Source: Gemmatimonadales bacterium
GTDB taxonomy: Bacteria; Gemmatimonadota; Gemmatimonadetes; Gemmatimonadales; GWC2-71-9
Assembly: GCA_036006525.1 (NCBI GenBank)
Contig: DASYPP010000109.1
Coordinates: 29,518-93,517, forward strand
DNA: 64,000 nt
Reading direction: 5' to 3'
Positions within the stretch are counted from its first letter, which is position 1; every line of letters begins with the position of its first letter. Below the pieces are notes generated by a model. It searched no databases. It had not been told where the DNA came from and worked only from the letters and a program-made list of their open reading frames with translations. Both the position numbers and the translations under genes were made by a program. Below are positions 7,646 to 63,905 of this stretch, piece after piece.

Positions 7646-8472
7646 GCGAGGCACAGCGGCTGGATCGATCCCGAGCGGTGATTCGCCAACGGCTGGGAGA
7701 TCGGCGGCCGGTTGCCGCGGTGGTACTGGGTTCCGGTCTCGGGGTTCTGAGCAGCAAGGTCGCCAATGCGGTCCATATTCCATACCAGGAGATTCCTGGC
7801 TTCCCGGTCCCGTCGGTTGAGGGACATTCCGGTGAGCTGGTGGCCGGAACTCTTGCCGGCCGTGAAGTCCTGGTGCAAAGCGGCCGGTTCCACGTGTACG
7901 AGGGCCATTCGGCGGCGACGGCAGCGCTCCCGGTCCGGGTATTTGCCGCCCTGGGGATCGACACCCTCCTGCTGACCAATGCCGCGGGCGGCATCCGGCG
8001 TACCTTTGCACCCGGCACCCTGATGCTGATTGCGGACCAGGTGAACCTGAGCGGTCGCCACCCGCTCGCCGGCCCGGTACTCCCCGGCGAGGATCGGTTT
8101 CCCGACATGTCGGAGCCGTACGACGCCGAACTTTGCGCCAAGGCTCGACGAGTCGCGAAGGAGAAGGGAATTCGGCTCGCGGAAGGTGTCTACGCCGGGT
8201 TGCTGGGGCCGAGTTACGAGACGCCGGCGGAAATCCGGATGCTGGAGCGCCTGGGGGCGGATGCGGTAGGGATGTCCACCGTGCCCGAGGTGATCGTGGC
8301 GCGGGCGAGGGGCATGCGCTGTCTCGGTATCTCGACCATCACCAATGCGGCAGCGGGCATCAGCCTGACCAGGCTTTCCCATGCCGAAGTGATGAAAGCA
8401 GCGGAACTCGTGAAGAATGATCTTGCGGCGATTCTGGAAGGAGTCATTGAAGGACTGGGGACTAAGGACTAG
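7642..8472 (+). CDS. punA: Purine nucleoside phosphorylase (PNP/MTAP family, inosine/guanosine type)
   Basis: VVLGSGLG...IPGFPVPSVEGHSGELV...GRFHVYEGH...GMSTVPE...ISTITN. GTGA overlap with the nupC stop. The TAG stop lies inside the GGACTRR array. Confidence 0.85.
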   Translation: MSEAQRLDRSRAVIRQRLGDRRPVAAVVLGSGLGVLSSKVANAVHIPYQEIPGFPVPSVEGHSGELVAGTLAGREVLVQSGRFHVYEGHSAATAALPVRVFAALGIDTLLLTNAAGGIRRTFAPGTLMLIADQVNLSGRHPLAGPVLPGEDRFPDMSEPYDAELCAKARRVAKEKGIRLAEGVYAGLLGPSYETPAEIRMLERLGADAVGMSTVPEVIVARARGMRCLGISTITNAAAGISLTRLSHAEVMKAAELVKNDLAAILEGVIEGLGTKD

Positions 8473-8482
8473 GGACTAAGGA
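8452..8482. repeat. Single-arm tandem heptamer array, GGACTRR x4.4
   Basis: ggactgg ggactaa ggactag ggactaa gga. It contains the stop codons of both convergent genes: punA TAG at 8470-8472, and thiD TAG on the minus strand at 8476-8478. Confidence 0.9.
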
Positions 8483-9285
8483 ATTATGCGGTGATTTACC
8501 GGTCCGTGGCCTTTGCCGAGTGGAGCAGCCGTTTCAATGGCACGATGGACATAGCCGAGGCCATCTTCCACTGCCTGGTCCAGGCGTCGGCCCAGGGCCA
8601 GTCCGGCGGTGATCGCGGCGGACAGGGTGCAGCCGGTGCCGTGAGTGCTGCCGGAATTGATGCGCCGGTGGGTGAAACGGCGAGCCATGCCGGGGAGGAC
8701 CAGCAGGTCGACGATGCTGTCTCCGTCGAGGTGGCCGCCTTTGATCAGCGCCGCCCCGGCGCCCATCTCCAGCAGGCGGCGTCCGGCCGCTTCCATCTGA
8801 TCCGGATCGCGCACCCTGCTGCCGGTCAGCACCTCGGCTTCGTCCAGGTTCGGCGTCACCAGGGCGGCGAGTGGGAGCAGATCCTTCTGGAGCGCGGACT
8901 CCGCGTCGGTTGCCAGCAGGCGGTCGCCCGCCGTCGCCACCATGACCGGGTCGAGCACGTAGTGGCGCCAATCGCGCGCCCGGATCTCCCGTGCCACGAG
9001 CCGGATCAGGGCCGCGGTCGCCAGCATCCCGGTCTTGAGGGCGGCGGGCGGCAGGTCCTCGGCGACGGCAGCAATCTGGGCCGAAACGATGTCGTCGGGT
9101 ACCAGGTGGACGGCGCGGACGCCGACGGTATTCTGCGCCGTGATTGCCACGATCACGCTGGTGCCGTGCACGCCGAACTGATGAAAGGTCTTGAGATCGG
9201 CCTGGATGCCGGCGCCGCCGCCGGAATCGGACCCGGCGATCGTCAGGGCGATGGGGGGAGGAATGAGATTCGTAGCCATCTTCAC
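8476..9285 (-). CDS. thiD: Hydroxymethylpyrimidine/phosphomethylpyrimidine kinase
   Basis: [33 protein letters not shown]...[10 protein letters not shown]...HGTGCTLS. Confidence 0.9.
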
Positions 9286-11027: not shown

Positions 11028-12230
11028 ATGAAGAACCGTAATGCAGTTCCGATGGCCTGCCTTGTTCTCACACTTGCCTGCCGCGGCGAGGCCCGCGCTC
11101 CCGAGCGCGATGACCTCAGGTCCCTGGTGGACAGTCTCCAGCCATCGGTGGAACGGGCCGTCGGGCTCAAGTTCAAGGCGCCGATCACGGTGGCGACCCG
11201 GAACCGCGACCAGTTGCGCACGTTTCTTCTCGAAAAAGTCGACGAGGAGCTGCCGCCCGCGCGGTTGCACGGCACCGAATACGCGTATCGGCTGCTGGGA
11301 CTCCTGCCCGACACCCTGGACCTGGAGAAGTTCCTGGTGGCTCTGCTCACCGAGCAGGTCGCCGGGTTCTACGATCCGCGAACCGCAACGTTGTATGGCA
11401 TGGAAGGCTACGATCGCGCCAAGCTGACGCTGATCATGGCCCACGAGATGGTGCACGCGCTGCAACACCAGTACCTGCCGCTCGATTCCATTCTTCAGCC
11501 GCAGGCCGATGACGACCGGCAGGTCGCCGCCCAGGCCATCCTCGAGGGCCAGGCCACCATCGCGTCGGTCAAGGCGCTATTGCCGGAGGGGATGACAATT
11601 CCGCCCGAGCTATGGAGCCAGTCCCGCGACATGCTGGCGGACGCCCAGTCTTCCATGCCGCTCTTCGCCAACGCCCCACTGGTGATCCGGGAGGAGCTGC
11701 TCTTCCCGTATCTGGCCGGCGCGGACTTCATGATGTGGTGGTCCCAGTCGGCCCACAGCGACACTCTGCCGTACGGCCCGCTGATGCCGCGCTCCAGCGA
11801 GCAAATCCTCCAGCCGGAACGATACTCCGCCGGCGATGAACCCATGGCACTGCGCTTCGTCGGCCAGGACGATGCGCTGTTCGAAAACACCCTGGGTGAC
11901 CTCACCATCCGAATCCTGGCCGCCCAGCTCGCCGGGGCGCCGGAGATTGCAGCGAAACTCACCCTGGGATGGCGGGGCGATCGCTTTCGGGTCTACGACA
12001 CGCCGTCAGGCCCCGCGTTGATATGGGTGATCGCCTGGGATGACGAAACCGCTGCCGACCGCTTTGAACGCGGGACCGGCGCCGCGCTCGTTGCGCGTTC
12101 CCGGCCCGACTATCGAAACGACCTGGTGAGATCCGTGGTGGGGGGAGTGCGGGCGACGCGCATCGTGCTTGCTCCTGTCGGCTGGATGAGGTGGCTGAAC
12201 CTGCCGCAGGTGATGAGTACTGGGTACTGA
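11028..12230 (+). CDS. Putative zinc-metalloprotease lipoprotein (HExxH), function unknown
   Basis: I moved the start to the ATG at 11028, which has AGGAGG 4 nt upstream. MKNRNAVPMACLVLTLAC is a lipobox. HEMVHALQH motif. The TGA stop lies inside the GTACTGN array. Confidence 0.6.
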   Translation: MKNRNAVPMACLVLTLACRGEARAPERDDLRSLVDSLQPSVERAVGLKFKAPITVATRNRDQLRTFLLEKVDEELPPARLHGTEYAYRLLGLLPDTLDLEKFLVALLTEQVAGFYDPRTATLYGMEGYDRAKLTLIMAHEMVHALQHQYLPLDSILQPQADDDRQVAAQAILEGQATIASVKALLPEGMTIPPELWSQSRDMLADAQSSMPLFANAPLVIREELLFPYLAGADFMMWWSQSAHSDTLPYGPLMPRSSEQILQPERYSAGDEPMALRFVGQDDALFENTLGDLTIRILAAQLAGAPEIAAKLTLGWRGDRFRVYDTPSGPALIWVIAWDDETAADRFERGTGAALVARSRPDYRNDLVRSVVGGVRATRIVLAPVGWMRWLNLPQVMSTGY

Positions 12231-12305
12231 GTACTGCGTACTGAATTCCGGAGATTGAAACACCCCAGATCAGCACCCAGCACCCAGTACCCAGTCCCAG
12301 CACCT
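12217..12305. repeat. Inverted pair of heptamer arrays: GTACTGN x4 (12217-12244), 26-nt spacer, CAGYNCC x5 (12271-12305)
   Basis: gtactgg gtactga gtactgc gtactga ... cagcacc cagcacc cagtacc cagtccc cagcacc. The upstream gene stop (TGA at 12228-12230) is inside unit 2. Confidence 0.9.
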
Positions 12306-12668
12306 TTTGTATGGCACGAAGAAGCCGCCGCGATGCACAACGAGCCGCTGCCAGGCCGGTGTGGCGCGATTGGAGACAATGCGTGCCATAGGACTCGGGA
12401 TAGCACAGGTCTTCACAGAGGCGGTAACCACAAACGCGCACGACATAGTCAGGAAAACGCAGCCATCGCTGCCCCCCTCCCCATAGCTGTTGCTGTTTCA
12501 GTCATTGCCGGTCTCCGTGCAGCCTTCGTGTACTCCGTGACTCCGTGGTCAATTCCTGGGAAGAGCTCTCCCCCTTGGGAGCTATCCTCGCTCCCCAGCA
12601 CGGCTTACCTCATCTCGACGGGTCCCGCGAAGCCGCCCGCAAGACCAAGGCTAACCCCTATCCCCGAC

Positions 12669-12698
12669 TTGATTTACCCCCACCCCTAAGGGTATTAT
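12669..12698 (+). promoter_or_regulatory. Candidate sigma70-like promoter (TTGATT-18-TATTAT) just upstream of ffh
   Basis: ttgatt at 12669-12674 and tattat at 12693-12698. The ffh ATG at 12708 is only about 10 nt after the -10 box and has no Shine-Dalgarno, so the transcript would be leaderless or near-leaderless. Confidence 0.4.
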
Positions 12699-12707
12699 GG
12701 TCGGCTT

Positions 12708-14042
12708 ATGTTTGACGAGCTTTCTTCCAAGCTCAACGCCGCGCTGCAGAAGCTCACCGGTCGGGGTGTCCTCAACGAGGAAGCCGTCACCGAAGGGCTC
12801 AGAGAAATACGCCGGGTCCTGCTCGAAGCCGATGTCAGCTTCGACCTGACCCGCGAGTTTCTGGAGCGGGTCCGAGAGCAAGCGGTCGGTGTCGCGGCGC
12901 TGAAGGCGGTGCGTCCGGGACAGCAGTTGGTCAAGATCGTCTATGACGAGCTGGTCAAGCTGCTGGGTGAGAAACAGGCCCCGATCGCCTACGCGACGGT
13001 GCCGCCGACCATCATCCTGGTCGTGGGGCTGCAAGGTTCCGGCAAGACGACTACCGCCGGCAAGCTCGCTAAGCGGCTGAAGCTGGAACAAAAGGCGCCC
13101 TTTTTGGTGGCCGCCGACGTGTATCGCCCCGCCGCGGTGGACCAGCTGGTCACCCTGGCGAAGCAGGTGGATGTCGGGGTGCACGCCGAGCCGGGCGTCA
13201 CCGACGTTCCGGGGATCGTCAAGCGGGCCCTGGTGGCCGCGGAAAAGGCCCGGGCGCGCACCGTGATCGTGGATACCGCCGGGCGGCTCCAGATCGACGA
13301 CGCCATGATGGCGGAGTTGCAGGGGCTCAAGGCCGCGATCAAGCCGCACGAGATCCTGCTGGTGGCGGACGGCATGACCGGCCAGGACGCGGTGCGGATC
13401 GCGTCCGGTTTCCACGAGGCGCTCGGCATCACCGGCGTGGTGCTGACCAAGATGGACGGCGACGCGCGGGGTGGTGCGGCCCTCTCCATCTACGGAATAA
13501 CCAAAGCGCCGATCAAGTACATCGGGGTGGGGGAAAAGCTCGATGCGCTGGAGCCCTTCCATCCCGAGCGGATGGCCGGGCGGATCCTCCAGCAGGGCGA
13601 CGTGCTCTCGCTGGTCGAGAAGGCCCAGTCCACCGTGGACGCGGCCGAGGCCGAGAAGCTGGCCAAGAAGGCCACCTCTAAGAAGGGAATGGATCTGGGC
13701 GATTTTCTTACCGCCATGAAACAGATCCAGAAAATGGGGCCGCTCAAGAACGTGCTGGGCATGCTGCCGGGGGTGAATCCCGCCATGCTGTCGGCCGCCA
13801 AGGTCGACGACAAGAAGATCAAGCACGTGGAAGCCATCGTGCTGTCGATGACCGCCCGGGAACGCACCGAACCGGACCTGATCAACGGGTCGCGCCGGAT
13901 GCGCATCGCGAAAGGCTCCGGGCGCTCGGTGCAGGAAGTGAATCAGCTGCTGGCGCAGTTCAAGCAGATGCAGAAAATGATGAAGGGCGGCGGCAAGGGC
14001 ATTCGTTCGATGATGGGCAAAGGATTTCCTGGTATGGGATAA
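12708..14042 (+). CDS. ffh: Signal recognition particle protein
   Basis: [32 protein letters not shown], and a Met-rich M-domain tail. Confidence 0.95.
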
Positions 14043-14048
14043 GGGCGG

Positions 14049-14089
14049 GTCACTCGGACCTGTCACTTGTCATCTGTCACTTGTCACTA
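14049..14089. repeat. Single-arm heptamer array, GTCAYYT x4, plus one isolated copy
   Basis: gtcactc (14049-14055), then gtcactt gtcatct gtcactt gtcacta (14062-14089). Lies between ffh and rpsP. Confidence 0.85.
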
Positions 14090-14101
14090 TTTGGATGGTC
14101 T

Positions 14102-14350
14102 ATGGCAACTCGTATTCGCCTGCGTCGCGTGGGCCGCAAGGGATTGGCGCTGTACCGGATCGTGATCGCGGACAAGGAAGCCCCCCGCGACGGGCGGTTC
14201 ATTGAAACGATCGGCACCTACCAGCCCAAGGCGGACAAGAACCCGGTCACGGTGGACGCCGAGAAGGCGCGCGCCTGGATGGCCAAGGGCGCTACGCCGA
14301 CGGAGACGGTCGCTTCGCTTCTGAAGAAGGCTGGGGTCTTTGCGAAATAG
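14102..14350 (+). CDS. rpsP: 30S ribosomal protein S16
   Basis: [36 protein letters not shown] prefer the ATG at 14102 over the track TTG at 14081. Confidence 0.95.
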
Positions 14351-14438
14351 CTTATAGCATATGGCTTATGGCAACTGCCGCTAAGGGGGTCTGCCTCCGT
14401 CGCGGAACTGCCATATGCTATACGCCATACGTCTTATG
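14350..14438. repeat. Inverted pair of heptamer arrays, CATATGG-type family
   Basis: Left arm: gcttata gcatatg gcttatg gcaactg (14350-14377). Right arm: ccatatg ctatacg ccatacg tcttatg (14411-14438). There is a 13-nt perfect complement (tatagcatatggc / gccatatgctata). The rpsP stop abuts the left arm, and the rimM ATG is in the last right-arm unit. Confidence 0.9.
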
Positions 14439-14963
14439 AGTGAGACCCGAATCCTCATTGTGGGGCGGCTTCGGAAGCCGCATGGTCTCAAAGGCGGAGT
14501 CACGGTGTTTCCGCTCACCGATGATCCTGAAAAGGTCTTCGCTCCCGGACGGGAGCTGATCACCCTGGATCTGGGCGGCAAAGAAGTCGGGCCTCCGGTG
14601 GTGGTTGAATGGAGCCAGCAGTATCACCGGGAATGGCTGATGAAATTCCGGGGGCGGGACAGCCGGGACAGCCTGGAAGGGCTCCGCGATATCATGCTGG
14701 CTTCCCGGGCGGAAGACCTGACGCCCCTGGGACCCGATGAGGTCTACCTCCACGACCTTGCGGGCTTCGCGGTCGCCCTGGAAGACGAGACCCCGCTGGG
14801 ACTGGTCTCCGACCTGTACGACTTGCCCGGCGGGCTGATGCTGGAGGTGCAGGGACCCAAACGGGAATTCCTGCTGCCGTACAAGAAGGAGTTCATTCGC
14901 CAGGTAGACCGGGAGAATCGCCGGCTGGTGGTCGCGCTACCTGAGGGGTTGTTGGACCTTTAG
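14436..14963 (+). CDS. rimM: 16S rRNA processing protein RimM
   Basis: MSETRILIVGRLRKPHGLKGGVTVFPLTDDPE. The ATG at 14436 lies in the last unit of a repeat arm. Confidence 0.9.
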   Translation: MSETRILIVGRLRKPHGLKGGVTVFPLTDDPEKVFAPGRELITLDLGGKEVGPPVVVEWSQQYHREWLMKFRGRDSRDSLEGLRDIMLASRAEDLTPLGPDEVYLHDLAGFAVALEDETPLGLVSDLYDLPGGLMLEVQGPKREFLLPYKKEFIRQVDRENRRLVVALPEGLLDL

Positions 14964-14965
14964 AA

Positions 14966-15050
14966 GCCTATCGCGTATCGCTTATCGCGAGTCCTTGAGA
15001 GATTCGACCGCTCGAAGGCGCTGCCATATGCCATATGCCATATGCTGCTG
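14966..15050. repeat. Inverted pair of heptamer arrays: GCNTATC x4, then GCCATAT x3 plus one degenerate unit
   Basis: gcctatc gcgtatc gcttatc gcgagtc (14966-14993) ... gccatat gccatat gccatat gctgctg (15023-15050). The arms pair at 5 of 7 positions per unit. The trmD ATG (15042) is inside the right arm. Confidence 0.85.
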
Positions 15051-15728
15051 ATAAATGTGGTGACGTTGTTTCCGGAAGTGTTCGAGCCGTACCTGGCCAC
15101 CAGTATTCCGGGGCGGGCGCGCGCGGCGAACAAGGTGAGTTACCGGCTGGTGCAGCTCCGGGACTTCGCCCACGACAAGCACCAGACCGTGGACGACTAT
15201 GCCTACGGCGGCGGCGCCGGCATGGTGCTCAAGCCGGAACCGTTTTTCGAGGCGGTGGAATCGTTCAGTCCGCGGGGACCCATCGTGCTGCTGTCGGCGC
15301 GGGGACGACCTTTCCGCCACGATGACGCGGTGCGGCTGTCGCTGGAGCCGGAGCTCACCCTGCTCTGCGGGCACTACAAAGACGTGGACCAGCGGGTGGC
15401 CGAGGGCCTGGCGACCGAAGAGATCGCGGTGGGAGACATGGTCCTGTCGGGTGGCGAGCCGGCGGCGCTCTGCGTCATCGATGCGGTGGTGCGACTGCTC
15501 CCCGGCGCCCTGGGCGACCACGAGTCGGCCAGCAGTGATTCGCACTACGAGGGATTGTTGAGCCCGCCCAGCTACACCCGGCCGCCGGAGTTTCGCGGCC
15601 TGGCGGTGCCCGAGGTGCTGCGTTCCGGCAATCACGCCGACATCGAAGCCTGGCGCGCGGCGGAAGCGGAACGGATGACCCGGGAACGGCGCCCTGATTT
15701 GTGGGCTGAATACGAGAGAGACGGTTAG
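15042..15728 (+). CDS. trmD: tRNA (guanine37-N1)-methyltransferase
   Basis: INVVTLFPEVFE...DDYAYGGGAGMVLKPEP...LLCGHYKDVDQRV. The ATG lies inside the GCCATAT array. Confidence 0.95.
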   Translation: MLLINVVTLFPEVFEPYLATSIPGRARAANKVSYRLVQLRDFAHDKHQTVDDYAYGGGAGMVLKPEPFFEAVESFSPRGPIVLLSARGRPFRHDDAVRLSLEPELTLLCGHYKDVDQRVAEGLATEEIAVGDMVLSGGEPAALCVIDAVVRLLPGALGDHESASSDSHYEGLLSPPSYTRPPEFRGLAVPEVLRSGNHADIEAWRAAEAERMTRERRPDLWAEYERDG

Positions 15729-15729
15729 A

Positions 15730-15808
15730 GCGTACGGTTATAGCATATGGCAGTGTGCTGATTTGAGATCCCAACAATCACACTGCCATACGCCATACGC
15801 CATAAGCA
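15730..15808. repeat. Inverted pair of heptamer arrays, CATATGG-type family
   Basis: gcgtacggttatagcatatggcagtg (15730-15755) ... cactgcc atacgcc atacgcc ataagca (15781-15808). cactgccata is an exact complement of tatggcagtg. Starts 2 nt after the trmD stop. Confidence 0.9.
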
Positions 15809-15835
15809 GTGCACAAAACTTCAGGAGTCTTGAAA

Positions 15836-16183
15836 ATGGAAAGACTGGCGGCAGTGGCCCAGGAGGGCTTGCGGACGGACATCCCGGCATTCAATCCGGG
15901 CGACACCATCAAGGTGATGGTCCGGGTCCGGGAAGGTGACAAGGAGCGGCTCCAGGCCTTTGAAGGTCTCTGCATCGCCAAGCGGGGTGGCGGTATCAGC
16001 GAGATGTTCACGGTGCGGAAGATGTCGGCCGGTGTCGGGGTGGAGCGGATCTTCCCGCTGCACAGCCCGACCGTCGCCTCCATCGACGTGGTCCGCCGGG
16101 GCCGGGTGCGTCGGGCCAAGCTCTACTATCTGCGCGCGGTGACCGGCAAAGCCGGGCGCATCAAGGAGCGGAAAGAGAGCTGA
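15836..16183 (+). CDS. rplS: 50S ribosomal protein L19
   Basis: [40 protein letters not shown] Shine-Dalgarno about 9 nt upstream of the ATG at 15836. Confidence 0.95.
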
Positions 16184-16186
16184 GCC

Positions 16187-16843
16187 GTGGCCTCCCCATG
16201 CCCTTCGCTGTCCCGCGAAGCGGCGCTCTGGGCGGAGGCGCACCTCCTCATCGGGGTGGATGAAGTCGGCCGCGGTCCCCTGGCAGGTCCAGTGGTGGCC
16301 GCGGCCGTCGTTTTTCCCCCCCGGGTCAAGCGGCTGAACGGGCTCCGCGACAGCAAGATGCTGCCCCAGAAGAAACGGGAGAAACTCGCCCTCAAGGTAC
16401 GGGAGCGGGCCCTCTGCTTCGCGCTGGGCGCGGCATCTTCCCGCGAGATCGACCGCTTCAACATCCGGGTGGCCAGCGCCATCGCGATGCGGCGCGCCGT
16501 GTGCCGGGTGCTGGGCTACCTGGGCGCCGCCGGCATCTCGGCCCGGCCCGGCGACAGCGTCCACATCATCATCGACGGCCTGCCGCTGCCGGAGCTGGGG
16601 TATCCCCACCAGGCGCTGATCGATGGCGATGCCCATTGCGCCTCGATCGCCGCCGCGGCGGTGGTCGCGAAAACGGTGCGCGATCTCCTGATGCGCCGCC
16701 TGCACCTGCGGCATCCTGGCTATGGGTGGGATACCAATGTCGGATACGCCACCGAGTTTCATTGCCTGGCACTCGATCAGCGAGGCCCGACTCGGCATCA
16801 CCGCCTGACCTTCGAGCCGATTTCCCAGCTCAAACTGCTCTAG
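16187..16843 (+). CDS. rnhB: Ribonuclease HII
   Basis: GVDEVGRGPLAGPVVAAAVV...DSKML...IIDG. Confidence 0.9.
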   Translation: MASPCPSLSREAALWAEAHLLIGVDEVGRGPLAGPVVAAAVVFPPRVKRLNGLRDSKMLPQKKREKLALKVRERALCFALGAASSREIDRFNIRVASAIAMRRAVCRVLGYLGAAGISARPGDSVHIIIDGLPLPELGYPHQALIDGDAHCASIAAAAVVAKTVRDLLMRRLHLRHPGYGWDTNVGYATEFHCLALDQRGPTRHHRLTFEPISQLKLL

Positions 16844-19308: not shown

Positions 19309-19326
19309 TTATTTTCTTGGCGGCCT

Positions 19327-19347
19327 GTCCTTAGTCCTTAGTCCTTG
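19327..19347. repeat. Single-arm heptamer array, GTCCTTR x3 (reverse complement of the GGACTAA family)
   Basis: gtcctta gtcctta gtccttg. Lies between the aminopeptidase stop (19308) and tRNA-Lys (19356). Confidence 0.85.
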
Positions 19348-20743: not shown

Positions 20744-20844
20744 CGGTAAGGCGGTAGGGCGGTACGGCGGTAAAAAACGAAAAACCCCGGGCAACGAAGC
20801 TCGGGGTTTTTCCATACTACTTACCGCCGTACCGCCTTACCGCC
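20744..20844. repeat. Inverted pair of 8-mer arrays (CGGTANGG x3.75 / CKTACCGC x3) enclosing an intrinsic terminator
   Basis: cggtaagg cggtaggg cggtacgg cggtaa (20744-20773) ... cttaccgc cgtaccgc cttaccgc c (20820-20844). The arms are complementary over about 29 nt, with 1-2 mismatches. Confidence 0.9.
20781..20810. terminator. Bidirectional intrinsic terminator nested inside the 8-mer arms
   Basis: aaaaccccgggc aacgaa gctcggggtttt. GC-rich stem with one mismatch, an A-run on the 5' side and a T-run on the 3' side. Lies between convergent genes. Confidence 0.8.
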
Positions 20845-22001
20845 TATGGTGTCACTACGAACGAGTTGCTCTGCAGCTGCACCGTTCCGAAACCCGACAA
20901 GGACGCCGTCACCACGATCGCATAGGTGCCGGGACTGCTCACCCTGAGATCGTCGTAGGTCTCGATTCCTGAACTCCCGGTGACGTTGGTCAGCGTACCG
21001 GACAGATTGCCGGTCCCCGTGATCCTGACCAGCGTGAGCGTGGACGATACCTCGGGCAACGGGGTGCCCCCGTTCCCCTTCGCCAGTACCCGCACCGAAG
21101 GCGTGATCACCTGGCCGGCCTGGACGGTCGAGGGCTGGCTCAGATAGGACAGGTTGATGCTTTGGGCATCCACCACCCCGAAGTCACTGAAGCCGGTCGC
21201 CGAACCACCCACCGGACCCAGGGCATTCGTCCCGATCGGAGCCGGCGCGGAACAGGCGAGGAAAGAGCTTGCGTCGCGCAGGAAGAGGATGCTGTGCGGC
21301 GTCGCCGTGTGGCTTTCCTCGATCCGGTACCGGCCTGGATTGGTAATACAGAACCCGATCACCGCGCCGGCATTGATGATCGGGCTGGGCGGCAGCGAGG
21401 ACCAGGCGTACGGGCTCCCGACCAGGATCTCCTGGAAGGTCGCCGCCGGGTTAGGAGTTCCGAACAGGAGAACCCGCTTGCCGAACACGGCCGGCCAGGT
21501 GGACTCCTGCAACCCGACGCCGGAGAGGCCGTCGCTCGAGAGCACCGGTGCGGCCGGATCGGTAGTTCCGCCTCGCACCCCGAACCCACCCGGCCCAAGC
21601 GGACCCGAGAAGTCGATCGGCAATGCGGGCGAGCCCACGGTCATGCAGGCGAGCAGCGCGTTGGCCAGCGCCGAGCCGGCCTGGGGAGTGCCGATCTGCC
21701 GATGACCGTTCCTGGCGCTCTCGATCAGGGCCAGCACGTCAAATCCCTTGTCGGTCGCCCGGAGAAAGTCTCCGCCGACGAAGAACTGCTGCATCTGGGC
21801 GACCAGGCTCTTGGCCGGGGCCCGGTCGATCACGGCGAAGTAGCCCCGGATCAGGTCGTTCATGACGCCGAACTGGCAGGCGGCATCAGTAGTGGCGAGC
21901 GCCGGTTGATCGGTGGCCGTCGGCTGGCGGGAATCAACGCAGGCGACGGCAATAGCGGTGGCCGCGGCAAGGACGCCTAAGCCAAAATGTGTGGAACGCA
22001 T
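20844..22001 (-). CDS. Hypothetical lipoprotein with a C-terminal Ig-like/beta-sandwich-looking region
   Basis: I moved the start to the ATG at 22001 (MRSTHFGLGVLAAATAIAVAC, a lipobox). The C-terminal roughly 100 aa (INLSYLSQPSTVQAGQVITPSVRVLA...TYAIVVTASL) resembles Big-type domains. Confidence 0.6.
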   Translation of the reverse strand: MRSTHFGLGVLAAATAIAVACVDSRQPTATDQPALATTDAACQFGVMNDLIRGYFAVIDRAPAKSLVAQMQQFFVGGDFLRATDKGFDVLALIESARNGHRQIGTPQAGSALANALLACMTVGSPALPIDFSGPLGPGGFGVRGGTTDPAAPVLSSDGLSGVGLQESTWPAVFGKRVLLFGTPNPAATFQEILVGSPYAWSSLPPSPIINAGAVIGFCITNPGRYRIEESHTATPHSILFLRDASSFLACSAPAPIGTNALGPVGGSATGFSDFGVVDAQSINLSYLSQPSTVQAGQVITPSVRVLAKGNGGTPLPEVSSTLTLVRITGTGNLSGTLTNVTGSSGIETYDDLRVSSPGTYAIVVTASLSGFGTVQLQSNSFVVTP

Positions 22002-26642: not shown

Positions 26643-27500
26643 GTGACCACGACGATTTTCATTGATGGCAAATGGCACGATCGGTCCACCGCGATGGTCT
26701 CGGTATTCGATCACGGCCTGCTGTACGGCGATGGCGTGTTCGAAGGCATGCGGGCCTACAACGGCAAGGTCTTCAAGCTCCGGGAGCACGTGGCCCGGCT
26801 TTTTGATTCCGCGCATTGCATCGCCCTGACGCCGCCCTTGGCGCAGGAGGAGCTGGTCCAGATCACCGAGGAAGGGGTCCGGAAATCGGGACTCAAAGAC
26901 GCCTACCTGCGGCACATTATCACCCGGGGCGTGGGCGATCTGGGGCTGGATCCCCGCAAGTGCCCCACGCCATCGATGCTGATCATCGTCGACCAGATCA
27001 AGCTGTGGTCACCCGAGCGCTATGAGCAGGGATTGAACGTCGTCACCGCCGCCACACCGATCCCCCAGAAAGAATCGCTCTCTCCCCGGGTCAAGTCCCT
27101 CAACTACCTCTGTCACATCCTCGCCAAGATCGAAGGGACCAACGCCGGCGCCGACGAGGTGCTGATGATGGATTCGAGTGGCACCGTGGTGGAGGCGTCA
27201 GGCATGAACGTGTTTGTGGTGAAGAACCGGGAATTGTTCACCCCCGCGCCCCACGCCGGCATCCTCAAGGGTATCACGCGCGACACCGTGATCGAGCTGG
27301 CCCGCGCCGCGGGCCTGGTGGTGCACGAGACGGTGCTCAACCGCTACGACATCTACACGGCCGACGAGGCATTTCTCACCGGTACCGCCGCCGAGATCGC
27401 CGCGATCCGCCAGCTTGACGGCCGGATGGTGGGCGCCGGACGCCAGGGACCGATAACCCGCGATCTTTCGTTGAAATTCCAGGCCTATGTGAGGGACTAA
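26643..27500 (+). CDS. ilvE: Class IV aminotransferase (branched-chain amino acid aminotransferase type)
   Basis: GTG start at 26643. VFDHGLLYGDGVFEGMRAYNGKVFKLREHVARL...SLNYL...GILKGITR. The TAA stop lies inside the GGACTAA array. Confidence 0.8.
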   Translation: MTTTIFIDGKWHDRSTAMVSVFDHGLLYGDGVFEGMRAYNGKVFKLREHVARLFDSAHCIALTPPLAQEELVQITEEGVRKSGLKDAYLRHIITRGVGDLGLDPRKCPTPSMLIIVDQIKLWSPERYEQGLNVVTAATPIPQKESLSPRVKSLNYLCHILAKIEGTNAGADEVLMMDSSGTVVEASGMNVFVVKNRELFTPAPHAGILKGITRDTVIELARAAGLVVHETVLNRYDIYTADEAFLTGTAAEIAAIRQLDGRMVGAGRQGPITRDLSLKFQAYVRD

Positions 27501-27566
27501 GGACTACGGACTAAGGACTCCAGCAGGCTAGTTCTCAGCACTTAGTCCTTAGTCCTTAGTCTTTAG
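27494..27566. repeat. Inverted pair of heptamer arrays: GGACTAA-type x4, 19-nt spacer, CTTAGTC x3.7
   Basis: ggactaa ggactac ggactaa ggactcc (27494-27521) ... cttagtc cttagtc cttagtc tttag (27541-27566). The ilvE TAA stop (27498-27500) is in unit 1. Confidence 0.95.
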
Positions 27567-44290: not shown

Positions 44291-44914
44291 ATGAACCTGC
44301 CCTACGATCGAGATATCTCAGTTCAGCATCTCCGTGCCGCCGACCCCCGGCTCGCGTTGGTGATCGACCGCGCCGGGCCCTGCCGCCTGGAACTGGAAAC
44401 GGTGCAAGATCCCTTCGCGGCGCTGGCGCAGTCCATCGTGTATCAGCAACTCACCGGCAAGGCGGCCGGGACCATTCATGGCCGGCTGGTCGGACTGTTC
44501 AAGCCGGCCCGGCGGCTCAGGCCCGAATCGCTGCTGGAAGCCTCGGATGAGCGGCTCCGTGGCGCGGGCCTTTCCCGCGGCAAGGTCGCGGCTCTGCGAG
44601 ACCTCGCCTTGAAGAGCCTGGACGGCACGGTGCCCTCCATGACCAGACTGCGGCGCATGGAGAACGAGGAGATCATCGAGCGACTGACCTCGATCCGGGG
44701 AATCGGCCGCTGGACGGTGGAAATGCTGCTGATCTTCCGACTGGGCCGCCCGGACGTGCTGCCGGTGACCGACTACGGAGTCCGCAAGGGGTTCGCGCGG
44801 GCGTTCAGGAAGCGGAAGCTGCCGACACCCGCCCAGCTGGAGCGATACGGCCGGCGATGGGCGCCGTATCGCTCAGTGGCTGCCTGGTACCTGTGGCGAG
44901 CCTGTGAGGAATGA
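44291..44914 (+). CDS. HhH-GPD DNA glycosylase (AlkA / 3-methyladenine glycosylase II-like)
   Basis: I moved the start to the ATG at 44291. FAALAQSIVYQQLTGKAA, LTSIRGIGRWTVEMLLIF..GRPDVLPVTDYGVRKG. The TGA stop overlaps the first unit of the 9-mer array. Confidence 0.8.
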   Translation: MNLPYDRDISVQHLRAADPRLALVIDRAGPCRLELETVQDPFAALAQSIVYQQLTGKAAGTIHGRLVGLFKPARRLRPESLLEASDERLRGAGLSRGKVAALRDLALKSLDGTVPSMTRLRRMENEEIIERLTSIRGIGRWTVEMLLIFRLGRPDVLPVTDYGVRKGFARAFRKRKLPTPAQLERYGRRWAPYRSVAAWYLWRACEE

Positions 44915-45031
44915 GGGGATTGAAGGGATTGAGGGGATTGAAGGGATTGAAGGGATTGAGGGGATTGAGGGGATTGAAAGTATCTCAACCCAATCCCATC
45001 AATCCCGTCAATCCTATCAATCCCCTCAATC
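44913..45031. repeat. Inverted pair of 9-mer arrays: GARGGGATT x7.5 (44913-44980), 10-nt spacer, CAATCCNNT x4.5 (44991-45031)
   Basis: Read directly. This is the largest array in the window. It fills the whole gap between two convergent stop codons (44912-44914 and 45033-45035). Confidence 0.95.
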
Positions 45032-60943: not shown

Positions 60944-61026
60944 TCCTGAGCGCCGCGAAGGATCTCTAGCCGGCGTCTTCTGGTGCGAGTAAAGAGATCC
61001 TTCGGTTCGCTACGCTCCCTCAGGAT
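60942..61026. terminator. Long hairpin between the convergent diguanylate cyclase and envC-like genes
   Basis: Inner 12-bp stem: cgaaggatctct (60956-60967) / agagatccttcg (60993-61004). Outer stem: atcctgag (60942-60949) / ctcaggat (61019-61026). There is no clear U-run. Confidence 0.55.
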
Positions 61027-63826: not shown

Positions 63827-63905
63827 GTACTGGGTGACGGGTACTGGGTACTGGGTGAACTTGCACGTCCAATCCAGTACGCAGTACCCGGTACCTTGGT
63901 TACCC
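63827..63905. repeat. Inverted pair of heptamer arrays (GTACTGG family, same as 12217-12305)
   Basis: gtactgg gtgacgg gtactgg gtactgg gtgaac (63827-63860), 13-nt spacer, ccagtac gcagtac ccggtac then degenerate units (63874-63905). The upstream gene stop (63900-63902) is in the degenerate end. Confidence 0.9.

Follow-up and report, generated by a model that had tools for sequence, protein, structure and literature searches.

The ffh-rpsP-rimM-trmD-rplS operon lies in a 64,000-nt stretch of a Gemmatimonadales genome (GenBank assembly GCA_036006525.1, contig DASYPP010000109.1; hereafter the window), and each of its four intergenic spacers is occupied by short tandem arrays. We judge it probable that these spacers are local members of a junction-filling, hairpin-forming tandem-repeat class found across Gemmatimonadales, and that the layout of stop and start codons around them is mostly a by-product. 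The class is abundant and specific to this clade, and its unit sequences differ between loci yet recur as families. Its arrays change copy number and homogenize within one arm, and whole elements are swapped at the same junction among close relatives. A sequence-only reading of the operon had proposed that hairpins in two of the spacers set the upstream stop beside the next start, coupling translation across roughly 80 nt. The observation behind it is real but partly overstated: two of the hairpins are good, one is marginal, and one is absent.

Tandem arrays in the operon spacers

The organism was placed in Gemmatimonadales by its TrmD relatives. The genes and expression signals of its operon are as follows (SD, Shine-Dalgarno).

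12669 to 12698, plus strand: promoter-like TTGATT-18-TATTAT, by consensus match only, ending 10 nt before the ffh ATG
12708 to 14042, plus strand: ffh (SRP54; Pfam PF00448, PF02978, PF02881)
14102 to 14350, plus strand: rpsP (S16; Pfam S16), with its stop TAG (14348 to 14350) in the first array unit
14436 to 14963, plus strand: rimM (Pfam RimM; independent gene calls), 175-aa product
15042 to 15728, plus strand: trmD (Pfam tRNA_m1G_MT; conserved N terminus), stop at 15726 to 15728
15823 to 15827, plus strand: rplS SD motif AGGAG, 8 nt before the ATG at 15836 and outside hairpin 4
15836 to 16183, plus strand: rplS (L19; Pfam L19)

Tandem Repeats Finder returned period-7 arrays in every spacer (14060 to 14088; 14350 to 14372; 14969 to 14989; 15022 to 15045; 15785 to 15804), as the sequence-only reading had claimed. 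Their parts are as follows.

14060 to 14088, plus strand: spacer 1 array, TGTCACT x4 in one arm; its sense strand is C-rich, and it stops 14 nt short of the rpsP ATG at 14102
14348 to 14373, plus strand: spacer 2 left arm, (A)TAGCTT ATAGCAT ATGGCTT ATGGCA
14374 to 14408, plus strand: spacer 2 loop, fast-evolving, with a small GC hairpin of its own
14409 to 14438, plus strand: spacer 2 right arm, TGCCATA TGCTATA CGCCATA CGTCTTA TG, ending with the rimM ATG (14436 to 14438)
14966 to 14989, plus strand: spacer 3 left arm, GCCTATC GCGTATC GCTTATC GCG, a GCGATAx family variant on the complementary strand, with 3-mismatch matches
15020 to 15044, plus strand: spacer 3 right arm, GCTGCCATAT GCCATAT GCCAT-ATG, with the trmD ATG (15042 to 15044) in array phase
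15730 to 15757, plus strand: spacer 4 left arm, GCGTACG GTTATAG CATATGG CAGTGTG, its periodicity extending back across the trmD stop
15779 to 15806, plus strand: spacer 4 right arm, CACACTG CCATACG CCATACG CCATAAG

A single CATATGG/CCATATG family had been proposed for three of the spacers. The motif CCATAYG indeed occurs in spacers 2 to 4, but the left arm of spacer 3 belongs to the GCGATAx variant. The motif has 18 matches in the 64 kb against 3.3 expected, a number reached by none of 100 shuffles, and within the 64 kb its array matches are confined to these three spacers; spacer 1 is built from a different unit family. The arms of spacers 2 and 4 share TTATAGCATATGGC and CTGCCATAYGCYATACGCCATA, while their loops are unrelated. 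Inverted-repeat termini with family copies at several sites are the arrangement seen in miniature inverted-repeat transposable elements and foldback elements. Direct repeats of CTTAT border the spacer 2 element but belong to the unit periodicity, and the empty sites of relatives are too diverged for boundaries to be drawn. The spacers are not assembly artifacts, as they recur without any indel in two public assemblies of this strain that were made independently.

The near-identical assemblies L149 and L150 (99.9% identity to the window) show no copy-number polymorphism and no indels, with one single-nucleotide polymorphism within a unit. Over the ~4 kb compared, only positions 14073 and 14990 differ, both of them in spacers: the first is a T/C in a TGTCAT/TGTCAC unit, and the second an A/G just 3' of the spacer 3 left arm.

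Start codons and folding

The starts of rimM and trmD stand as originally called. A 1-nt indel in L081, the close relative of the window, throws the in-array ATGs of spacer 2 out of frame, so the rimM start is 14436 and not the in-frame ATG at 14415; the position of the trmD ATG at 15042 fits the N terminus conserved among relatives, MLxI(N/D)VVTLFPE. No SD-like motif precedes either gene in the window, again as first noted, and most relatives are likewise without one. RpsP itself ends early, in AGVFAK rather than the AGVFKAATV of relatives, and the array element thus appears to supply the rpsP stop.

Whole-spacer folds are significant for spacer 2 (-38.6 kcal/mol, z -3.6; arms-only duplex z -4.8) and spacer 4 (-34.4 kcal/mol, z -2.9; arms-only duplex z -6.5). 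Spacer 3 is marginal (-26 kcal/mol, z -1.2, with 22 of 200 shuffles as good; arms-only duplex z -2.2, 12 of 500 shuffles), and its left-arm variant gives a C.C mismatch in each unit. Spacer 1 has one arm and no hairpin (-15.6 kcal/mol, z -0.7).

The geometry described for hairpin 2 was found in both the coordinates and the minimum free energy fold. The rpsP stop sits inside the first unit at the base of the left arm, and the rimM ATG sits inside the last, degenerate unit of the right arm. In the fold, the rimM AUG pairs with the 6 nt after the rpsP stop, within a 7-bp foot that begins at the G of UAG. For the rimM stop and the trmD ATG, said to occupy the two bases of the next hairpin, the array phase of the ATG holds, but the fold of spacer 3 is marginal, also as a means of sequestering the start. 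The exterior-loop distance between stop and start was tried as a test of bridging and proved uninformative, shuffled GC-rich spacers also lying within ~9 to 14 steps.

The antisense strands of spacers 2 and 4 fold as well or better (z -4.7 and -5.5; for spacer 4, -45.4 versus -34.4 kcal/mol), because the mismatches in these hairpins are A.C on the mRNA strand. In the right arms of the elements at 14348 to 14441, 15726 to 15808, and 12214 to 12304, C stands where pairing needs T, which gives A.C on the mRNA and G.U antisense.

We infer a single operon mRNA in which hairpins 2 and 4 would fold. A promoter scan of 12200 to 16400 returned one sigma-70-like site, at 12669 to 12698, and none inside the operon; by its consensus match, this site presumably drives the operon transcript. 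The same interval holds no plus-strand terminator-like site, and no operon hairpin combines a GC stem with a following U-tract. Across the whole window, Rfam at gathering score returned two tRNAs only, and the sub-threshold matches are generic miRNA-precursor hairpins, with no ribosomal protein leader or other known RNA. These results bear on whether the hairpins act as intra-operon terminators or attenuators that lower rimM and trmD mRNA, which we find scarcely credible. The hairpins are stable and contain GC, and a class member at 20744 does enclose a canonical terminator. However, the U-tracts are missing here, and all three hairpins precede rplS, a highly expressed gene whose SD is strong, with no promoter-like site found inside the operon.

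With the promoter-like site ending so close to its ATG, ffh may be transcribed almost without a leader. Upstream of ffh, a 477-nt region (12231 to 12707) matched no Rfam family; it is partially conserved with L081, with large indels.

A repeat class of Gemmatimonadales

The window contains 13 array loci with units of 7 to 9 nt, nine of them inverted pairs, at co-directional, convergent, and divergent junctions. The six inverted pairs outside the operon fold to between -37 and -77 kcal/mol (z -5 to -12), more strongly than the operon hairpins.

1722 to 1827, divergent junction: GGTGGGTN x6 / CCCACTTR x4 hairpin (-67.1 kcal/mol, z -6.5)
12214 to 12304: GTACTGN x4 / CAGYACC x5 hairpin, the upstream gene's stop inside the left array (-40 kcal/mol, z -5.2)
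20744 to 20845, convergent junction: CGGTAAGG x4 / CTTACCGC x3 arrays (-76.8 kcal/mol, z -12.2)
27492 to 27566: GGACTAA x4 / CTTAGTC x4 hairpin, the upstream stop TAA within a unit (-37.3 kcal/mol, z -5.1)
44908 to 45031: 9-mer arrays GGATTGARG x8 / CAATCCCNT x5 (-76.7 kcal/mol, z -8.0)
63827 to 63897, between two minus-strand genes: GTACTGG x4 / CCAGTAC-type hairpin (-37.2 kcal/mol, z -6.0)

At least seven unrelated unit families occur within the 64 kb, and several recur: AAGGACT at three loci (8450 to 8484, 19326 to 19346, and 27492/27537), CGGTAAGG at two (20744/20820 and 62199), and GGTACTG at two (12214/12271 and 63827/63875). The idea that every unit is a three-frame stop cassette holds for most AT-rich units of the window and fails for the GC-rich units of relatives. 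At 20744, the element exactly fills the gap between two convergent stop codons, and its arrays flank a canonical bidirectional terminator (AAAAACCCCGGGC...GCTCGGGGTTTTT), lengthening its stem. A separate REP-like palindrome family, GTCATCC[CT]GAGCG.AGCGA[AG]GGATC with its inverse, is present at a convergent junction (60944 to 61025); the family also takes the place of the arrays in spacer 3 of L081 and is nested in the loops of array hairpins in L029, L001, L003, L025, and L067.

The comparison set consisted of the window and 148 related loci (L001 to L148), 912 kb in all, over which the histogram of repeat periods peaks at 7 (106 arrays) and 8 (95 arrays). Period-7/8 arrays reach 29.7 per 100 kb in the window and 22.8 in the Gemmatimonadales loci (747 kb), and the 101 kb of this operon sampled from other phyla yielded none. 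Of 189 such arrays, 98 fall between genes and 47 at predicted gene ends, with coding sequence making up ~88% of the DNA; this split is approximate, as the gene calls are crude and come from a caller, based on GC content at third codon positions, that overextends 5' ends and calls spurious antisense open reading frames (ORFs). In the literature that could be searched, no account of arrays like these in Gemmatimonadota came up, which does not prove their absence.

Arrays also enter coding sequence. Several relatives carry in-frame 7/8-mer arrays inside ffh, all at one surface loop after a VGVPVF/VGVGAY motif; that of L008 is an inverted pair, and the ffh gene of the window has no insertion. The ffh-internal arrays, in coordinates of each locus, are as follows.

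L008, 2275 to 2339
L010, 2256 to 2284
L065, 2320 to 2346
L105, 619 to 653
L110, 1325 to 1350
L078, 2653 to 2682

The polarity of the arms is a new observation. Of the 32 inverted array pairs in the comparison set, 30 have a G-rich arm on the 5' side and a C-rich arm on the 3' side, which by symmetry is the order read from either strand. Among perfect stems, those within arrays are G-first by 95:9, whereas ordinary inverted repeats from the same DNA stand at 128:174. Lone arrays behave alike: downstream of stops the sense strand is the G-rich one (41:22), and upstream of starts it is the C-rich one (40:21). Given this polarity, the start-proximal arm cannot hold an SD-like G-run, and the "no visible SD" of the sequence-only reading is therefore built into the element.

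The operon in relatives and in L081

Many relatives have little or no spacer at the rpsP-rimM and rimM-trmD junctions. The rpsP-rimM gap is at most 13 nt in 70 of 76 relatives, typically an overlapping TGATG without an SD, and the rimM-trmD gap is at most 4 nt in about a third of the loci. Arrays were found in 2/104, 4/116, 30/100, and 8/111 of spacers 1 to 4, respectively. Only the window has all four spacers filled; three are filled in L081 and none in 51 of 79 loci. An SD-like motif precedes rimM in about 5% of relatives (4 of 84 with short spacers, 0 of 5 with long ones), rplS in 100 of 107, and trmD in 46% of those with short spacers versus 4 of 30 (13%) with spacers of at least 45 nt.

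The placement of stops and starts is not kept where relatives retain arrays, an outcome that the sequence-only reading had itself named as refuting its proposal. In about ten relatives, the array overwrites the ancestral trmD ATG and the likely start moves upstream: into the loop behind its own SD (GGAGG-5 nt-GTG in L039, AGGAG-3 nt-GTG in L030), to a loop ATG at -51 to -54 (L062, L044, L018), or onto the rimM stop (GTGA in L014 and L046, ATGA in L011). From these predicted starts, the C-rich arm is probably translated as a Pro/Arg/Ser-rich N-terminal extension of TrmD. In four others (L054, L057, L104, L110), single-arm arrays of 40 to 71 nt, with neither hairpin nor SD, precede trmD.

L081, 17% diverged from the window at 4-fold degenerate sites, shows how quickly the elements turn over. 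Its spacer 3 holds a REP-like palindrome (GTCATCCCGAGC...GCTCGGAATGAC) in place of the arrays, the units in the right arm of its spacer 2 are reshuffled, and its arm at 12271 (the right arm of the 12214 to 12304 element) has one extra unit and is homogeneous. Loops diverge by 28 to 45%, with indels; that of spacer 2 has substitutions at 9 of 32 positions plus two indels. Units homogenize within one arm even where this breaks pairing, as in the spacer 3 left arm and the spacer 4 right arm.

Probable insertion into coupled junctions

We suggest that the arrays are DNA-level, duplicative, slippage-prone elements, that the CCATAYG family spread locally into three neighboring junctions, and that arrays would persist only where the genes stay functional. 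Since the ancestral junctions were ~0 nt (TGATG between rpsP and rimM; at most 4 nt between rimM and trmD), an insertion that is tolerated has to leave the stop and the start at opposite feet of the stem. The element would supply the rpsP stop and run in phase into the rimM and trmD ATGs, and on these sequence comparisons the geometry appears largely a by-product of insertion into coupled junctions.

What such an insertion does to coupling is a separate matter. In E. coli and Haloferax experiments, a spacing of ~20 nt nearly abolishes termination-reinitiation (PMC10666635), and an SD-less trmD lying 45 to 200 nt from the upstream stop therefore needs explanation. Lacking an SD, rimM and trmD probably continue to rely on ribosomes completing the preceding gene; one that has reached the stop may melt the stem foot and free a start codon that is only a few nucleotides away across the stem. 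Such melting would make an insertion tolerable without being the arrays' purpose. The coupling originally proposed thus draws support from the ancestral TGATG, the SD-less genes, and the foot of spacer 2, but fits poorly as an account of what the arrays are for, given their convergent, divergent, and ffh sites and the 51 of 79 loci without them. In this model, hairpin-assisted coupling is plausible as the reason that insertions are tolerated.

The stronger claim, that the hairpins exist as selected coupling devices that set an upstream stop beside an SD-less start so that the terminating ribosome opens the stem foot across ~80 nt, we consider unlikely. It has on its side the pairing of the spacer 2 AUG with the 6 nt after UAG and the retention of this geometry in L081, where the rimM start lies 5 nt past the 3' foot, as well as the ancestral overlap at this junction. 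An SD-like motif is missing from 26 of 30 trmD genes with spacers of at least 45 nt and from all 5 such rimM genes, and the spacings in the window are 78 to 85 nt, far beyond the ~20 nt that stops reinitiation. There are also RNA-unfolding precedents in f1 VII/IX and in rpmI-rplT at +52 nt, known cases working at +52 to +62 nt where the ribosome moves into the hairpin (PMC12548453), and the same function was proposed for a hairpin of short tandemly repeated repetitive sequences (STRR) between hupS and hupL (PMC2670836). Against it stand the relatives described above, with trmD starting in the loop behind its own SD or at the rimM stop, or behind a lone arm that has no hairpin and no SD. The structure of hairpin 3 falls short of significance, the mismatches of the window hairpins are on the mRNA strand, and the same elements occupy the convergent junction at 20744 to 20845, the divergent junction at 1722 to 1827, and the interior of ORFs. 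Furthermore, most relatives lack an array, shuffled GC-rich spacers also bring the ends together, and structure after the stop correlated negatively with coupling in a library screen (PMC12548453).

A further reading, which we likewise consider unlikely, would make the arrays self-propagating, polar foldback repeat elements whose G-rich arm comes first on either strand, like a head-to-head fusion of telomeres. Such elements would split SD-less stop/start overlaps, that of trmD included, and folding back would restore proximity and allow shunt-like termination-reinitiation across 80 to 200 nt.

Alternatively, the hairpins might punctuate the mRNA in the manner of REP sequences, blocking 3'-5' exonucleases or capping processed 5' ends so that the rpsP and rplS cistrons outlive rimM-trmD. 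The sequence-only reading had named differential mRNA stability or processing as its alternative, for which the evidence points neither way. The two strong hairpins do flank the ribosomal protein genes, with the weak one between rimM and trmD, and relatives show a bias toward sense-strand folding. RNase R and PNPase target structured mRNAs that contain REP sequences (PMC12320835), and transcript stability was proposed for STRR hairpins (PMC2670836). This seems to us quite unlikely, considering the absence of arrays from the operon in most relatives, their fast turnover, the equal or better antisense folding in the window, and the presence of the same elements inside coding sequence.

It is also conceivable that the arrays bind proteins or ribosomes, with single-stranded heptamers before starts, AT-rich for this genome, serving as S1, Csp, or CsrA-like sites. 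The spacer 1 array ends shortly before the rpsP ATG and has changed little relative to L081, the right arm of spacer 3 abuts the trmD ATG and is poorly paired, and the units consist of a constant core plus one variable position. The same role was suggested for the TAACTGA repeats of Beggiatoaceae, which lie just before starts, mostly without a ribosome-binding site (RBS), including in ribosomal protein operons (PMC4679880). However, most arrays are paired into stable stems, and no single binding specificity fits at least seven unit families together with the GC-rich units of relatives; we regard a binding function as very improbable.

Several observations weigh against the by-product interpretation that we favor. 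The G-first polarity suggests selective filtering or a directed mechanism, which our model leaves unexplained. Within the 64 kb covered, we identified neither a transposase nor a target-site duplication nor any other means of copying, a RAYT (REP-associated tyrosine transposase) gene not having been searched for. Relative to L081, spacer 1 differs at 2 of 59 positions and the left arm of spacer 2 at 0 of 24, against the 17% at 4-fold sites, which hints at constraint, and hairpin 4 carries one G-C to A-U compensatory change; with L081 the only close relative, these rates come from a comparison of two sequences. Among relatives at large, folding is better on the sense strand in 72 cases versus 43 for the antisense (p = 0.003, uncorrected for phylogeny or composition). 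As a test of selection at the RNA level, this comparison is ambiguous, with relatives favoring the sense strand and the window's hairpins the antisense.

Comparison with known repeat systems

Repetitive extragenic palindromes (REP) and bacterial interspersed mosaic elements resemble the arrays in being intergenic, in occurring within operons, and in forming hairpins when transcribed. REP elements occupy hundreds of sites, follow one genome-wide consensus of 20 to 40 nt, and are mobilized by RAYT transposases. Here, in contrast, the arms are tandem 7- to 9-mers with locus-specific units, no single consensus spans the unit families, and a REP-like family (GTCATCCCGAGCG...) coexists with them. 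Drosophila FB elements have inverted arms made of short tandem repeats. Eukaryotic foldback transposons (Drosophila FB, Tetris; PMC4079207) share with the arrays these short-repeat inverted arms of variable length and a variable middle; they are eukaryotic, kilobase-sized, and transposase linked, unlike our elements, for which neither a transposase nor a target duplication was found.

The closest resemblance in unit and setting is to known heptamer repeats. Cyanobacterial STRR likewise have 7-bp tandem units, intergenic positions, many loci per genome, and a hairpin between co-transcribed genes, for which transcript stability or translational coupling was proposed at hupS-hupL (PMC2670836). 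The present arrays share with STRR and long simple sequence repeats (a kind defined by units of 5 to 11 nt, typically 7, in three or more copies) the period-7 units, many loci, intergenic enrichment, and variation in copy number and unit relative to L081. They differ from STRR in host and composition (Gemmatimonadota, 60 to 70% GC), in having many unrelated families rather than few, with 8- and 9-mers common, and in their systematic inverted pairing, their G-first polarity, and their abutting or overlapping of stops and starts.

The TAACTGA repeats of Beggiatoaceae (MacGregor 2015, PMC4679880) are similar in being heptamers a few nucleotides before starts, mostly without an RBS, ribosomal protein operons included, and the stop triplets in that unit limit overlap of arrays with coding ends. 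However, they comprise one unit in direct repeats (1 indirect set in 170) with no predicted structure, whereas here there are many units, mostly in inverted pairs. The GGGNATC repeats of Xanthomonas and Nostoc (Rehm 2015, PMC4692102), which we compare together with long simple sequence repeats (Mrazek 2007, as cited in PMC4679880), are also enriched between co-oriented ORFs and are G-rich on the sense strand after stops and antisense before starts. They were read as G-quadruplex formers preferring four units, whereas most units here cannot form a G-quadruplex and pair instead with an inverted partner.

The RNA-unfolding kind of coupling known from f1 VII/IX, MS2 coat/lysis, and E. coli rpmI-rplT fits spacer 2 and is comparable in that structure masks a start and upstream ribosomes open it. 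In those cases the upstream ORF enters the structure, whereas here the stop lies at the stem foot, and in our model only the basal pairs would open.

Implications

Should the by-product reading hold, the operon is unremarkable for this lineage but still puts on record an abundant repeat class from a phylum that has been little studied. The arrays make up most long spacers, supply stops, overwrite starts, and enter coding sequence, and gene callers and operon predictors will mishandle them. The G-first rule constrains how arrays arise or which of them survive. The class is also a natural experiment on translational coupling, with dozens of lineages carrying a structured repeat of 45 to 200 nt before an SD-less trmD, a gene that is essential in bacteria where it has been studied.

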